Virus record (IMG/VR): IMGVR_UViG_2645727970_000008
Strand: one strand, 5' to 3'
Source of the DNA: a virus
Lineage: Duplodnaviria > Heunggongvirae > Uroviricota > Caudoviricetes
DNA length: 15,836 nt
Numbering within the stretch: the first letter of the stretch is position 1; each line of letters begins with the position of its first letter. Shown piece by piece: positions 1,246 through 7,963 of this stretch. The position numbers and the translations under genes are program-made. Under the pieces are notes generated by a model that was given only the letters and a program-made list of their open reading frames with translations, was not told the DNA's origin and ran no database searches.

Positions 1246-1765
1246 CAATCCACCTGCGCACATTCTCACCGGCTTCAGAAGCCACATCGGATGCTTTCGC
1301 GATTTCAGTTTTCACAGCATCAAGATGTGCGGGTGATATATCAGGGTATTTACGCTGCAGTGTCTGAGGGACACGGACAAGGATCCCTGATATATTCTGT
1401 GCCACTCGCTGAAAGATGTAGGTAAATAACTCCGTCTCGAGGACAAGGCCTTCCTCACGAGCATTTTTCAGCTCCTGTGCATCGGCCTGTGCCTTCGTCA
1501 GTCGGTAACGTTCGTAATCAATGGTGCCGGGCTGAAGGTCTGATTCGCTGGCAGCCCTCAAATCCTCGATCTCTTTACGGAGTTTTTCGTTTTCAATATC
1601 AGATTCCCTCTGCGCATACCACTGAATGGCAGCAGTTGTATCAAAAACTGATTCAGTCCCTTTCCCTCCACCAGAAACTAGTGGTAACCCCTGACTCTGC
1701 CAGGCGGTGATGGTCCTGACATCAACGCCAAAAATATCGGCCAGTTTTTTCTTATTGACGTTCAT
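1217..1765 (-). CDS. nu1: Terminase small subunit (Nu1-like)
   Basis: 182 aa ORF with ATG start. N-terminus [28 protein letters not shown] and the central EIENEKLR...[27 protein letters not shown] stretch closely resemble lambda Nu1 as recalled. Sits immediately downstream of the cos site. Confidence 0.9.
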
Positions 1766-1990
1766 ACACTCCCCCGGGAACCAGAAAGGATCTGAAAATG
1801 GCGTTTTCTAACAAAAACAGCCTTTGTCAGATCCTTTTATATTTTTAAAATTCTATTGATAATCAAACAGTTAAAAAGAAGAAGAACGGATCTGATTTTT
1901 CCCTAAAAATTTTCATAAATAGCGAAAACCCGCGAGGTCGCCGCCCCGTAGCCTGCCGGATCGCCGGAAAGGACCCAATAAAATGATAAT
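1766..1990 (-). other. cos: cos packaging site; cosN cohesive end at 1935-1946, cosB-like region between cosN and Nu1
   Basis: Reverse complement of 1935-1946 is GGGCGGCGACCT, the lambda 12-nt cohesive end, followed by CGCGGGTTTTCGCTATTTATGAAAATTTT as in the lambda left end. Position directly upstream of Nu1 is canonical. Confidence 0.8.
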
Positions 1991-2184
1991 AATTATCATT
2001 TATATAAATACCATCACACATCCCACGTACACCATAAAACCACGACAAATAATCAATTTTGTCCAAGTCATGCATTAATTGATCTGTGTCAACTTAACGT
2101 AAAGACATCTTAAGACAATACAAATCAGCAGCACTGAACACGGAAAAACACAATGTCATCAAAAAATAAAGCTTCCCAAACCAG

Positions 2185-2325
2185 ATGATTAATCAAATCC
2201 ATATTGCCCTTGAACGTAAGGGATCGGGTAATTTTTCGGCATGGGTTATTGAAGCCTGCAGGAGAAGGCTGGCAACAGATGCAAAGCACCTGCGCCCGGC
2301 CAGCATGAAAAATAACGAGAAATGA
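2185..2325 (+). CDS. Possible small ORF (46 aa, MINQIHIALERKGSGNFSAWVIEACRRRLATDAKHLRPASMKNNEK)
   Basis: ATG-initiated ORF in an AT-rich spacer, below the 60-aa track cutoff. Protein-like composition but no clear Shine-Dalgarno. Confidence 0.2.
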   Translation: MINQIHIALERKGSGNFSAWVIEACRRRLATDAKHLRPASMKNNEK

Positions 2326-2457
2326 ACGTTCGGTTACAGGAACCGGTAGCTACTGTCTTCTAACAATATTTCATCTTCATATCCGGCGAAACAAGACTTT
2401 ACCCTGCAGGGATGTACTGAATAGCAACAGAGTGATAATTAACTTCTGATAAAATAA

Positions 2458-2784
2458 TCAGGGTGCTGAAGGACTAAAGATAAATGTTTTCTTCACGCCT
2501 TTACGCGGCTTGTCCTTCTCAAATCGCCATTTTGCCATCGCCTTTACAACCTGCTCATCAAACAGATGGTGCGGCTCTGAACGGATAAACTCAATTCGGG
2601 TGACAGTACCATCAGCACCAATATCAAACTTCACATCAACCCGTCCCTTTATATAATTTGCCGCGGCATAGGCCGGATATTGTGGTAATGCCTTAACCAA
2701 CTGTCGAGGCATATCTGTTTTATGTTGCGTACAGCCCATAACCAAAGAAGACAACAAAATAATTAACGGAAGATTTCTTTTCAT
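2458..2784 (-). CDS. Lipoprotein consisting of a TonB C-terminal domain (signal peptide, lipobox Cys, TonB_C fold)
   Basis: Start taken at the second Met (MKRNLPLIILLSSLVMGC), which has a GGGA Shine-Dalgarno; the track ORF extends to 2799. The mature part ALPQYPAYAAANYIKGRVDVKFDIGADGTVTRIEFIRSEPHHLFDEQVVKAMAKWRFEKDKP aligns with the E. coli TonB C-terminus ([28 protein letters not shown]...FEREVKNAMRRWRYEPGKP) as recalled. Confidence 0.8.
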   Translation of the reverse strand: MKRNLPLIILLSSLVMGCTQHKTDMPRQLVKALPQYPAYAAANYIKGRVDVKFDIGADGTVTRIEFIRSEPHHLFDEQVVKAMAKWRFEKDKPRKGVKKTFIFSPSAP

Positions 2785-2804
2785 TTTTATTCCCGGCATA
2801 GATA

Positions 2805-2821
2805 AGAATAAGTCTTATTCT
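2805..2821 (-). promoter_or_regulatory. 17-bp palindromic operator candidate (AGAATAAG-T-CTTATTCT) overlapping a TAGAAT -10-like hexamer upstream of the TonB-CTD lipoprotein gene
   Basis: Perfect inverted repeat read directly from the sequence, 21-37 nt upstream of the start codon. AT-rich hexamer content is loosely Fur-box-like. Confidence 0.35.
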
Positions 2822-3459
2822 AACAATGCAGCCCTGTCGGTCATCAATCCTCTGCTTAATGGCAATGACAATTATCCGACTTAAATCACAAATCAGACAC
2901 ATGACATAACAGAGCTTGCGAGGTAACACATCGTCCGGTTTCTTCCACCATCGCACCGGACCAGCGACCATGAGGGGACAACGCCGCGCTCCGTTAACAC
3001 GGTAAACCCCGGTGTGTATCGTTTTTGATTATCCCCGCACACTCGCGCAGAGGAGTCTCCCTCTCGGGCTGTGGTCTCTGTTGATGCGGGAATACGGCGA
3101 CGATACAGTGCATAGTTATGTCAGGCTAAAATGCCTTTATCAAATCTGGGTAACGCAATCTGCCATTGTTGGCTCCGGTTGTGGTGATGATGTCAAGCAA
3201 GCCCATCTTGACTATCTCAACTAGTCGATTCATGACATATGTCACATTTATACCAACCAGATCATTGCGTTGAGTTTACAACTCAATAATTCTTGGTTGG
3301 ACGTCAAGTTTTGACGGTATTCGGGTGGCAGTTGATAGCAATCTTGGAACCGTCCACCTAATAGCTGCTTGTGTGGCGTTTAAATTGTGGAGTGCTCGCA
3401 ACAGAACTTTTCTTTCTTGTTTGCGAGCGATGTTTAGCAACTTTTAAGAGAGTTAAGTC

Positions 3460-3690
3460 ATGGAGTTTTTGAAAGAGCATCATTTGCCTTCAATAATTTT
3501 TGGAATTTTTTCCGCCATTTTTTGGATTATTTCATGTTTTGCATCTTCCAAAGAACACCCACCAAAAACGGAACAAGGCAGTTTCTCATCACTGGGTTGT
3601 TTTAAAGCCATTGAAATACAAAGTAAATGGAATAAACGGGCTGCTTTTTGCGCAGCGTTAGCTGTTCTTGCTCAAGTATTTAGCTTTTAG
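3460..3690 (+). CDS. Small membrane protein (76 aa, two hydrophobic segments); opposite-strand moron between Rz and cos
   Basis: ATG with GAGAG upstream, hydrophobic stretches LPSIIFGIFSAIFWIISCFA and AAFCAALAVLAQVFSF, and a strong intrinsic terminator immediately after the stop. Confidence 0.5.
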   Translation: MEFLKEHHLPSIIFGIFSAIFWIISCFASSKEHPPKTEQGSFSSLGCFKAIEIQSKWNKRAAFCAALAVLAQVFSF

Positions 3691-3696
3691 TTTCAA

Positions 3697-3735
3697 AAGT
3701 GTAAATCAGAACCACTCGTATAGCGGGTGGTTCTC
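3697..3735 (+). terminator. Rho-independent terminator (10-bp stem GAACCACTCG/CGGGTGGTTC, TATAG loop, T-rich tail); may also act on the minus strand downstream of Rz
   Basis: Hairpin plus TCTGTTTTATT read from the sequence, directly after the 3460..3690 stop and about 70 nt past the Rz stop on the other strand. Confidence 0.7.
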
Positions 3736-3806
3736 TGTTTTATTCGTGTTGCGACTAAAACTAACTAAAATCACGCATATGAAAGATAATGGGAAAATTA
3801 TCGCTA

Positions 3807-4244
3807 TCATCGAAGGCATTGCGTCCTAATGTACTCCTGCAAGTAGTTAACCTGCGCGGTTATCCTGTCGATTCCACTTCGGAGACGGTAATAATTGAGT
3901 TCAGCATCTGCTGTAAGTCCTGGGGTTTCTCCATTGCCCATGCCGCTGGCTCCGGTCGTTGACTTTGCACAGGTGGCGGCGACTTGCAGGCGCTTACGCC
4001 CAGCAGAAACATCAGCACGGAGACTTTCGATAGTCGCATTAGCATCAGCAAGCTCCTTTGTGTATCTGGCGTCAAGTTCTGCTACATCACGTTGCCGCTT
4101 CTGCATATCAGCGATGATGGATGTGGCTTTATCGCGCTGCTCTTTGTAGGCGATGGCGTTATCACGGTAATGATTAACAGCCCATGAAAGGCAGACGATG
4201 AGGCAGATGACCAGAACGTAGATAATCGCGGTTACTCTGCTCAT
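3807..4244 (-). CDS. Rz: Rz i-spanin (inner-membrane spanin subunit)
   Basis: From the ATG at 4244 ([31 protein letters not shown]...), near-identical at the N-terminus to lambda Rz as recalled. ATGA overlap with the endolysin stop. The track ORF begins at an upstream GTG (4256). Confidence 0.9.
3860..4045 (-). CDS. Rz1: Rz1 o-spanin, embedded in the +1 frame of Rz (lipoprotein, proline-rich mature part)
   Basis: Embedded ORF with signal peptide and lipobox ([20 protein letters not shown]) followed by [16 protein letters not shown]. Exact start Met is uncertain (track ORF starts at 4075). Confidence 0.75.
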
Positions 4245-4738
4245 TGTTGCCCCCACAAACAGACTTCACGCTCAATCTCACGGCGAGTCATCAGCCCTTT
4301 CCATTGCTTACCGCCAGCGTATGTCCAGCGCCGTAGCTGATCACATGCGCCTTTGATATCGCCCTGGTTTATTTTGCGAAGAAGCGTCGATGTTCTGAAA
4401 TTGCCAGCGCCCACGTTGTAAACGAACGAGTAAAGAGCGCCGCGCGTTGTTTCCGGTATATCGACGTTGATGTACGGGTTAATTTGTCTGGCGACCGTGG
4501 CAAGGTCTTTATTCAGGAGGGCTTTGCATTCTGCTTCGGTATACGTTTTACCGGGCATGATGTCTTTTCCGGTGTGTCCGTGACATACAGTCCATACGCC
4601 AACGATATCTTCGTATGGTATGTAGCTGACACCTTCCAGGCCATCGTCACCACTCGGACCAGTGATGAGCACAGACGCTATGGCAACAGCCCCACCACCA
4701 ATAGCAGCAGCAACGGCTTTTCGTAATGATGGAGGCAT
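4241..4738 (-). CDS. R: SAR endolysin (phage 21 R-type lysozyme)
   Basis: 165 aa. N-terminal Gly/Ala-rich SAR segment [27 protein letters not shown], then a lysozyme core ([19 protein letters not shown]...). Start ATG overlaps the holin stop (TAATG). Confidence 0.95.
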
Positions 4739-7347: not shown

Positions 7348-7683
7348 ATGAAGTGGATTGTGATTGATACAGTTATCCAGCCATCATGCGGAATATCTTT
7401 TTCAGTCATATGGAGTAAAATAAAATTAATAATCTGGTATCAATCGGATGCTTTCTTACCTCCTGAAAGTATATTTACACTGACTCACACAGGCATCATG
7501 CTCAATAACAAAGTGCTACCTGTAACCATTTACAACGTAGTACCATTCAATAAAACATTCTGGAATTTAATCAAAAACAGCCAGGAATGCCCTACAAATA
7601 CAGATAACGTATTGAATGAATGCTTTAATAACCGTTGCACTCTGCAAATATGTCCTTATGGACTAAAACAACAAAGTCCATAA
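7348..7683 (+). CDS. Hypothetical protein, 111 aa, AT-rich, Cys-rich C-terminus; opposite strand to the late operon
   Basis: ATG with AAGGAAAG Shine-Dalgarno at 6-nt spacing. Low-GC, Ile/Asn-rich composition. C-terminal motif C-x10-C-x4-C-x4-C. TATACT -10-like hexamer about 40 nt upstream. Confidence 0.5.
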
Positions 7684-7714
7684 GGAGTTTACTCACATCT
7701 GACAAAATCAATAT

Positions 7715-7745
7715 AAACAGCCCCTCCGGAGAGGGGCTGGAGAGT
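7715..7745 (-). terminator. Rho-independent terminator oriented for the minus strand (perfect hairpin CAGCCCCTC-CGGA-GAGGGGCTG)
   Basis: Perfect 9-bp inverted repeat; the minus-strand reading is followed by TTTATATTGATTTTGT. Confidence 0.65.
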
Positions 7746-7963
7746 GGCGCTATGTGCCATTGCATGGTGCCGGGTGCCTCCCGGTGAATTCAGTACCAGC
7801 ACCTGAATCCGCGATTATCCCATATACCTACTCGCTGATTGCCCCTCCGCACAGGGGGATTCACCATGCCAGTTTCTTTTAACAAACTCCCCGCAAACCA
7901 GACAACAGTCAACCGCCTGAATTGTGAAGTATTTAAAAATTTCTCCCGCTAACTGATACCCGG

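Follow-up and report, generated by a model that had tools for sequence, protein, structure and literature searches.

A free TonB C-terminal domain encoded as a predicted outer-membrane lipoprotein in lambdoid prophages of Escherichia coli: a tentative decoy for TonB-dependent transport

The stretch of DNA analysed here (the window), i.e. 15,836 nucleotides of the IMG/VR virus record IMGVR_UViG_2645727970_000008, represents the late region of an E. coli prophage of the lambdoid type, and the subject of this study is a small gene at 2458..2784 on its minus strand that encodes a TonB-like lipoprotein. The entire window is 97.5% identical, across 95% of its length, to a prophage of the O111:H2 strain 12A, and for the 701-bp piece around the gene (2300-3000) there is a match of 100% identity in E. 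coli O127:H6 E2348/69 as well as in three further genomes. Along the minus strand the annotated order reads RusA, DUF1133, a methyltransferase, two tRNAs, a SASA esterase, a class II holin, the lysozyme RrrD, Rz, the TonB-like gene, cos and the small and large terminase subunits. The gene occupies the slot between the lysis cassette (Rz/Rz1) and cos/terminase, on the same strand as the late operon; in lambda this slot houses bor. The same Rz-to-terminase slot is used in phage 21, JLK-2012, a Klebsiella phage and a Serratia prophage, and in all phages examined the gene lies directly 3' of the holin-endolysin-Rz/Rz1 cassette.

The coding sequence (stop codon 2458-2460) specifies a precursor of 108 aa. 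It is part of an open reading frame of 113 aa (2458..2799, minus strand), in which an upstream ATG at 2799 would add five residues; this codon reads GTG in most relatives, the RefSeq protein (WP_000828067.1, 'TonB family protein') starts at the ATG at 2784, and a Shine-Dalgarno-like GGGAA (2790..2794, minus strand) is found 5-9 nt 5' of the latter. The precursor begins with MKRNLPLIILLSSLVMGC, followed after cleavage by TQHKTDMPRQ..., and the mature protein counts 91 aa. Judged by inspection of the pattern alone, the signal peptide MKRNLPLIILLSSLVMG together with the lipobox cysteine (2731..2784, minus strand; Cys18 codon 2731-2733) is that of a lipoprotein: it can be divided as MKRN-LPLIILLSS-LVMG-C18, with a positive n-region (K2/R3), a 12-residue hydrophobic core and a lipobox L-V-M-G-C18 that agrees with the pattern [LVI][ASTVIM][GAS]C. 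Cys18 is invariant across an alignment of 13 family members (see below). The residue at +2 is Thr19 (codon 2728-2730), and the homologs have T, S, A or V at this position but never Asp, which at +2 is the Lol avoidance signal in E. coli. The protein is predicted to be anchored in the outer membrane, in its inner leaflet, and to face the periplasm.

The mature part was searched at the level of both sequence and structure. Residues 26-104 (2473..2709, minus strand), equivalent to E. coli TonB 153-231 and including the edge strand beta3 (residues 94-103), belong to Pfam TonB_C (PF03544; E=2.7e-15, 57 bits against a cut-off of 24.6) and to TIGR01352 (tonB_Cterm; E=1.9e-15, 56.9 bits against a cut-off of 27.1); TonB_C and TonB_2 were the only Pfam families matched. 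The models of full-length TonB (NCBIfam equivalogs, PRK10819 type) scored 50-74 bits, far below their cut-offs of 265-448. In the PDB the best sequence matches were the C-terminal domains of Salmonella and E. coli TonB (~1e-16; for 1u07 E=1.8e-16, with residues 26-104 on TonB 153-231), and the identity to the enterobacterial domains is 38-44%. An AlphaFold2 model computed from a 17-sequence alignment had a mean predicted local distance difference test (pLDDT) score of 87, with 83 in the block 21-30, 95 from residue 31 onwards and 95-98 over 31-100. The elements of the model follow the order beta, alpha, beta, beta, alpha, beta, and as nothing comes after the strand 94-103 the edge of beta3 is free. 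The top matches of this model in a Foldseek comparison with the PDB were TonB C-terminal domains only, namely, each at a probability of 1.00, 1u07 (root-mean-square deviation, rmsd, 1.3 A), TonB bound to BtuB (2gsk_B; rmsd 1.0 A, target-normalised TM-score, TMt, 0.92) and TonB bound to FhuA (2grx_C; rmsd 1.1 A, TMt 0.92). TolA domains followed far behind, and the substrate-binding TonB-family C-terminal domain of FusB (7zc8, 9hi3) was matched as well; a search of the viral structure library BFVD with the same fold gave no match at E<0.001.

The protein thus shares with TonB's C-terminal domain (PF03544; E. coli TonB ~150-239; 1u07, 2gsk, 2grx) the fold, the order of the elements, the YP motif, the equivalent of W213 (W86) and the beta3 edge, whereas the transmembrane helix, the proline-rich spacer (it is too short for either), the ExbB-ExbD link and residues 232-239 are absent, Q160 and R166 are replaced by L33 and Y39, and the anchor is an N-terminal lipid, predicted to sit in the outer membrane. 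Because residues 26-33 align with TonB 153-160, which are part of the folded domain, the tether between Cys18 and the domain comprises ~7-9 residues (T19-M25). A sequence-only reading made earlier had described the product as a lipid-anchored TonB C-terminal domain, with a lipobox Cys and a Thr at +2, that lacks the N-terminal anchor and proline-rich spacer of TonB. The profile search, the structure prediction and the cleavable signal peptide some eight residues before the domain all agree with that description; the linker of ~14 residues that it allowed was an overestimate in view of the alignment and the rise in pLDDT (83 at 21-30, 95 from 31). By computation, then, the folded part of the lipoprotein is modelled as the TonB C-terminal domain alone, on a short tether, with a free beta3 edge and no connection to ExbB-ExbD. 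It is not a TonB energy transducer, since it has neither the anchor nor the spacer.

In principle, such a protein could be the remains of a tonB gene or the product of a gene in its own right. An exhaustive HMMER search yielded 4901 TonB_C proteins at E<=0.001. The top single-domain hits among them are short (107-133 aa), can be aligned from residue 1 onwards and all start with a signal peptide and lipobox. Two motifs in the alignment of 13 proteins are specific to the family: Y-P-x-Y-A, in place of the Y-P-A-R-A of TonB, and S-E-P-x-H-L-F-D, in place of its S-A-K-P-A-N-M-F-E. When one genome per species was scanned with six family sequences as query, 15 loci were recovered in Raoultella, Klebsiella, Erwinia, Serratia, Pantoea and Pseudescherichia. 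The chromosomal neighbours, as classified with Pfam, include lacZ-lacI, DUF1440, dsbB-nhaB, araA, panE, prolyl oligopeptidase, aldehyde dehydrogenase and EAL/GAF proteins, and a further family member is located between ahpCF and a glutathione S-transferase gene; no neighbour proved to be conserved among these loci, and the family gene is therefore taken to stand alone. One of the Serratia loci is a prophage, with an endolysin homolog upstream and the small terminase subunit directly downstream, and the Klebsiella-phage type is present in 24 IMG/VR contigs. In a neighbour-joining tree, which is rough and supports no firm count of captures, the Klebsiella-phage copies group with chromosomal copies of Raoultella/Klebsiella and the E. 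coli phage copies form a branch of their own. These comparisons indicate that the gene is not a truncated tonB but a member of a stand-alone lipoprotein family of the Enterobacterales, that this family is older and wider than its phage copies, and that temperate phages of E. coli, Klebsiella and Serratia carry such copies in the slot between the lysis cassette and cos/terminase.

Comparison with the phage 21 homolog (70% protein identity) gave 1.50 synonymous (dS) and 0.19 non-synonymous (dN) substitutions per site, i.e. a dN/dS of 0.13 (0.14 for the mature part alone), and the reading frame is intact in 82/82 loci of the clade to which the window belongs and in 73/73 IMG/VR loci of the phage 21 clade (155 viral loci). 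These values indicate a gene that is functional and under purifying selection. Of 5426 complete E. coli genomes, at least 1583 (~29%) were matched in a megablast search with the 701-bp segment 2300-3000, a prevalence that refers to the segment containing the gene and not to the gene alone; 414 of the matching genomes cover at least 80% of the segment, and a single genome has matches at up to 6 places. Prophages of enteropathogenic and Shiga-toxin-producing E. coli harbour close relatives of the gene, and the deposited phages with relatives are Stx1a-converting phages, JLK-2012, Lys8385Vzw, phage 21, four other coliphages and a Klebsiella phage.

In the databases these proteins go by unspecific or misleading names ('TonB family protein', 'partial tonB-like membrane protein', 'TonB fragment'). 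In the case of PHROG 1267 (phrog_1267) the protein is matched end to end (3e-42), yet the group is labelled 'Rz-like spanin' and placed in the category lysis. A spanin identity was considered and rejected: the window encodes a separate Rz (3807-4256; PF03245, 1.1e-34) and, embedded in it, Rz1 (3860-4075; PF06085, 4.5e-20), and the TonB-like protein matches TonB_C but neither of the profiles for Rz and Rz1. With both spanin genes present separately, we read the label as an annotation by position; PHROG 1267 is the family of TonB_C lipoproteins, and its label is probably an error, liable to propagate to phage annotations. Full-text literature searches retrieved no study of the lipoprotein or of its chromosomal family.

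Directly upstream of the gene lies a perfect 8+1+8 palindrome, AGAATAAG-T-CTTATTCT (2805..2821, i.e. -21 to -37 from the start codon), the arms of which are 100% complementary. It overlaps the -10-like hexamer TAGAAT (2822-2817) of a sigma-70 promoter-like site (2817..2844, minus strand) that consists of a weak -35, ATGACC (2844-2839), a 16-nt spacer and, with the TG upstream of the hexamer, an extended -10 of the form TG-n-TAGAAT (2825-2817), with 9/12 matches in all. Perfect inverted repeats with arms of at least 8 and a spacer of 0-3 number four in the window, two of which belong to another site, against 1.09 +/- 1.19 in Markov-1 simulations, 58% of which contained at least one; promoter-like sites are not enriched either (4 found, 2.2 expected). 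By sequence statistics alone neither the palindrome nor the promoter is significant. A second copy, which would suggest a dedicated regulator, was absent from the window when up to 3 mismatches were allowed.

The palindrome is present in exact form in 76/84 loci of the window clade (74/80 among the IMG/VR loci), and likewise in a variant with 10% protein divergence (90% identity) in which the flanks have changed. Within the window clade 1 of its 17 positions is variable, against 24 of 130 in the flanks, and at these numbers a better conservation than that of the flanks is not demonstrable; the -10 is invariant. In the phage 21 clade the -10 reads CAGAAT and the left arm is kept, with a small upstream open reading frame ending inside it, but the right arm is absent in 73/73 loci. 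The option that the palindrome acts as an RNA hairpin was discarded on account of its 1-nt loop and of the predicted transcription start inside it; at a larger scale, a search of 1700-3900 for structured RNA gave zero Rfam matches even at E<=1. Two further observations concern this region. First, a strongly conserved stretch of ~40 nt (ATGGTGGAAGAAAC.GGA...) occurs upstream of the gene in both clades (window 2886-2981, minus strand; phage 21 2846-2983), where it starts a short open reading frame of 21-31 aa in the window and 45 aa in phage 21, the stop codon of the latter falling in the counterpart of the left arm of the window's palindrome. Second, the best sigma-70 match of the region, TTCACA-16-TATAAT (11/12; 2630-2657, plus strand), lies inside the TonB-like coding sequence on the opposite strand; RNA started there would run antisense to the promoter and 5' end of the gene.

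Potential Fur boxes were scored against the classical 19-mer GATAATGATAATCATTATC (x/19) and the 7-1-7 core TGATAATNATTATCA (x/14). At the window's palindrome the 19-mer GATAAGAATAAGTCTTATT (2801..2819, plus strand), which ends 16 nt before the ATG, matches 13/19; elsewhere in the window a score of at least 13/19 is reached only at 4160 and at a dyad near cos (1979-2003). Far better sites are found at the homologs, where they came to light during a search of the loci for a different motif: of 12 genome loci, 9 have a match of at least 14/19 within 100 bp upstream of the gene, whereas among 127 upstream regions that belong to other genes of these loci there is 1 (4.7% of these control regions reach at least 13/19). 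The homolog sites match 14-17/19 and 12-14/14. For instance, Raoultella lignicola and Klebsiella sp. R390 have TGATAATTATTATCA (14/14 of the core), other Raoultella have TGAGAATTATTATCA (13/14) and Serratia marcescens has TGATAACGATTATCA (13/14), while the box of Serratia grimesii matches 17/19 of the classical 19-mer and those of Erwinia typographi and the Serratia prophage 16/19. The distance from the end of the box to the ATG is ~7-18 nt at most loci, but the box is situated 35-45 nt upstream in one Pantoea locus, the Serratia prophage and S. grimesii. The Klebsiella-phage copies retain 12-14/19. Because of these consensus matches upstream, the stand-alone lipoprotein family is apparently controlled by Fur, and the dyad in the window looks like a weakened descendant of the family's Fur operator.

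The sequence-only reading had proposed that a palindrome over a TAGAAT hexamer places the gene under a repressor, possibly in an iron/Fur-like manner. Both the palindrome and the (extended) -10 are real, and relatives carry consensus-grade Fur boxes at the same position; the palindrome is, however, statistically unremarkable and missing from the phage 21 clade, and the window's own site reaches no more than 13/19 and 9/14. We give somewhat less than an even chance to the possibility that the palindrome has no regulator and owes its symmetry to accident, as a by-product of the AT-rich promoter region or of an indel of 13 nt: about one palindrome of this size is expected per window, this one is single, the gene is equally intact in the 73/73 phage-21-type loci that do without it, and its conservation (1/17 against 24/130) cannot be told from that of the flanks. 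On the other hand, it is placed exactly where the relatives have their Fur boxes, a 13/19 match to the Fur consensus recurs at only two other places in 15.8 kb, and the exact sequence was retained in the 10%-diverged variant whose flanks have changed.

The best match to the Fur consensus in the window is found elsewhere, namely in the dyad near cos. It is a perfect 9+1+9 palindrome, AATGATAATAATTATCATT (1982-2000), with 16/19 of the classical box and a core, TGATAAT-A-ATTATCA (1984-1998), that equals the 7-1-7 consensus. It lies just upstream of the cosQ-like GGGTCCTTTCC (~10 bp) and of cosN (~35 bp), and ~190 bp upstream of a plus-strand DUF3950 gene. At the same position the lambda-like phage HK630 reads TGATAATGATTATCA and phage 21 reads GTGATAATTATTCTC. 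To our knowledge, no function has been ascribed to a Fur-like dyad next to cosQ.

What could a TonB domain do at the outer membrane? In TonB, beta3 pairs with the TonB box of FhuA (PMC11658791), and overproduction of a periplasmic TonB domain inhibits TonB-dependent iron import, as stated in a passage of PMC9841981 citing Howard et al. 2001; the inhibitory nature of periplasmic C-terminal fragments, which the sequence-only reading had assumed, can thus be traced to the literature as far as that passage goes. Moreover, FhuA is jammed from the periplasmic side by Llp, a lipoprotein of phage origin, and lipoproteins of this sort may be widespread among coliphages (PMC9586334). We tentatively propose, at a likelihood that we put slightly short of even, that the prophage lipoprotein is a decoy that jams TonB-dependent transporters. 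Like TonB, its domain would capture TonB boxes through strand augmentation at beta3, but from the side of the outer membrane and without delivering force, so that the TonB boxes of transporters, or of colicins threading through them, would be occupied or jammed in competition with TonB. A lysogen would then admit less of what enters by TonB-dependent routes, i.e. phages (T1, phi80), group B colicins and microcins, and in the late phase the lipoprotein could also silence receptors. It would correspond to the phage lipoproteins Llp and Cor, which are specific for FhuA, but with a broad range. Because the gene has the same orientation as the late operon and is positioned between Rz and the gene for the small terminase subunit (Nu1 in lambda), it is presumably transcribed with that operon; expression from its own promoter (TG-n-TAGAAT), overlapped by the AT-rich dyad that resembles a decayed family Fur operator, may occur as well.

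The artificially exported periplasmic fragments of TonB (Howard et al. 2001, J Bacteriol 183:5885, as cited in PMC9841981) likewise consist of the periplasmic C-terminal part uncoupled from the motor, but they are laboratory constructs, soluble, overexpressed and longer, whereas the lipoprotein is the lipid-anchored, single-domain product of a natural gene. [quoted passage not shown] Their folds are unrelated to that of the TonB-like lipoprotein, and neither its Pfam matches (TonB_C, TonB_2) nor its structural neighbours (TonB, TolA) point to a relation with them in sequence or fold; Llp is specific for its receptor and binds FhuA at the plug, not at the TonB box, and the function of Llp and Cor has been demonstrated where that of the TonB-like lipoprotein is inferred. 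Bor/Iss of lambda is a small lipoprotein encoded in the same slot between Rz/Rz1 and cos, and phage 21 carries both Bor and the TonB-like gene; the sequence of Bor is unrelated, and its gene is on the opposite strand with its own promoter, whereas the TonB-like gene is co-oriented with the late operon. In terms of regulation, finally, the stx1AB genes of Stx1 phages have a Fur-controlled promoter embedded in the late region and are expressed upon both iron starvation and induction, and the TonB-like gene, which the Stx1a phages carry too, is a candidate for the same arrangement. Fur control of stx1 was reportedly shown by Calderwood and Mekalanos in 1987; in the case of the TonB-like gene consensus boxes are confined to the relatives, the window copy being degenerate.

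Several points weigh against a decoy function. The chromosomal relatives appear, from their upstream sites, to be induced by iron starvation, which is precisely when a competitor of TonB would do most harm to iron uptake, and the family is mostly chromosomal. The co-orientation with the late operon complicates the assumed expression in the lysogen, the Fur-like site of the window is degenerate (9/14 of the 7-1-7 core), and the sister clade of phage 21 is without it. The reach of the domain to a TonB box on a tether of ~8 residues would be a weak point, the last 8 residues of TonB (232-239) are missing, and the shortest inhibitory fragment of Howard et al. (2001) is said to be ~118 aa long, i.e. 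longer than the present domain. TonB R166 aligns with Tyr39, a Tyr in 11 of the 13 lipoproteins aligned, and TonB Q160 aligns with L33, at a position that varies within the family, Q160L being known in TonB as a suppressor allele (PMC11658791). The defence-system models of PADLOC do not match the protein, and full-text literature searches found no experiment, expression data or chromatin immunoprecipitation data on it.

A different explanation, which we regard as rather unlikely, is that the protein is not an exclusion factor but an iron-homeostasis factor that benefits the host by tuning TonB-dependent transport under iron limitation. Exposed TonB boxes might be held or protected by it, scarce TonB might be shared out among the derepressed receptors, or signalling at the cell surface might be dampened, and the prophage copy would then be a lysogenic-conversion gene that is useful in the iron-poor gut. 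The distribution of the boxes (9/12 loci against 1/127 controls), the housekeeping neighbourhoods of the stand-alone homologs (lacZ/lacI, dsbB/nhaB, araA, ahpCF) and the age and width of the family relative to its phage copies all fit such a role, but no conserved partner gene adjoins the family gene, there is no known mechanism by which an unenergised TonB domain would aid uptake, and the box has decayed in precisely the E. coli phage copies. The decoy and the iron response can also be combined. Extending the decoy function to the whole family, there may be a class of 'anti-TonB' outer-membrane lipoproteins shared by hosts and phages: Fur-induced C-terminal domains without a motor that would occupy TonB boxes and gate all TonB-dependent traffic, giving broad protection against phages, colicins and microcins at the time that the receptors are derepressed, and that would have been co-opted by lambdoid phages, including phage 21 and the Stx1 phages, as a pan-receptor exclusion moron. 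We consider this extension possible but doubtful.

The position of the gene suggests yet another role, i.e. that the protein is made from the Q-antiterminated late transcript and acts at or after lysis, either by inactivating the receptors on the dying cell and its debris and thereby sparing progeny (as proposed for Llp of T5) or by aiding the disruption of the envelope. The late-operon strand, the location directly downstream of the lysis genes in all phages examined, a search for terminator-like sites in 2300-3300 that found none, and the spanin label of PHROG 1267 are in line with it. Nevertheless we hold it to be improbable, as a complete spanin pair is already in place and the label looks positional, and as family members exist on chromosomes outside any phage. 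In addition, the C-terminus of the tail protein gpJ is lambda-like, with no sign that the phage uses a TonB-dependent receptor: in the near-identical prophage of E2348/69 it is 96% identical to the J proteins of Stx siphophages and 58% identical to lambda J, although the receptor of the carrying phage itself is not inferable from this comparison.

Slightly more improbable still is that the domain binds a partner other than the TonB boxes of transporters. The substitutions at TonB positions 160 and 166, the charged beta3 (V-K-K-T-F-I-F where TonB has I-V-V-N-I-L-F) and the presence of the substrate-binding domain of FusB among the structural matches would allow for this, but beta-augmentation rests mostly on backbone contacts, and the similarity to the enterobacterial TonB domain (38-44% identity, rmsd ~1 A) is high. 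That the gene is a decaying, functionless remnant of a captured tonB, as the database names would have it, is scarcely credible and was rejected given a dN/dS of 0.13 at a dS of 1.5, the universally intact frame (155 viral loci) and a signal peptide and lipobox of its own, in common with the chromosomal relatives.

The gene has two small neighbours on the opposite strand. A gene (3460-3690, plus strand) that separates Rz from the TonB-like gene and runs against the late operon encodes a hydrophobic protein of 76 aa; it is followed by a strong terminator-like hairpin (3708-3734, 12-bp stem) and looks like another moron, of unassigned function. Between the TonB-like gene and cos, and converging on the former, lies the DUF3950 (YlcI/YnfO) gene mentioned above (2185-2325, plus strand; 46 aa; PF13132, 8e-19). 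Its product has an N-terminal stretch that resembles a beta-strand (IHIALERK) followed by FSAWVIEACRRRL, from which one might guess, and it is a guess only, at a DNA-binding protein of the ribbon-helix-helix type that could be a local regulator; a sequence search of the PDB for such a relation gave no match.

Several other elements were recorded in the prophage. The small RNA STnc100 (132 bits) maps to 7709-7898 and two tRNA genes, annotated as Arg and Ile in close relatives, to 8598-8671 and 8772-8844, all on the minus strand, as is the sok antitoxin RNA of a hok/sok module (13090-13261). Upstream of the lysis cassette, a copy of the anti-adaptor gene iraM (~7350-7685, plus strand), placed via positions 7523-7858 of a relative, adjoins the gene for the SASA-family (NanS-like) esterase. 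In the region of the DUF968 gene there is a third perfect palindrome, GTTCCGGTACCGGAAC (8+8, no spacer; 12459-12474).

What we describe is a known domain in an undescribed architecture and setting, the function of which could be broad, and two labels are corrected in passing, namely 'partial TonB / TonB fragment' for the protein and 'Rz-like spanin' for PHROG 1267. Iron, B12, siderophore-antibiotic conjugates, group B colicins, microcins and many phages enter by way of TonB-dependent transporters, and a TonB docking domain that is natural, widespread and attached to the wrong membrane would be an inbuilt competitor of this entry. If the lipoprotein does tune iron uptake, it would be a new component of the Fur regulon. 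If it does block TonB-dependent entry, it would be the first exclusion factor that is aimed at the shared energising step instead of at one receptor, and as such would bear on phage therapy, on colicin ecology and on the susceptibility to drugs of the cefiderocol type.

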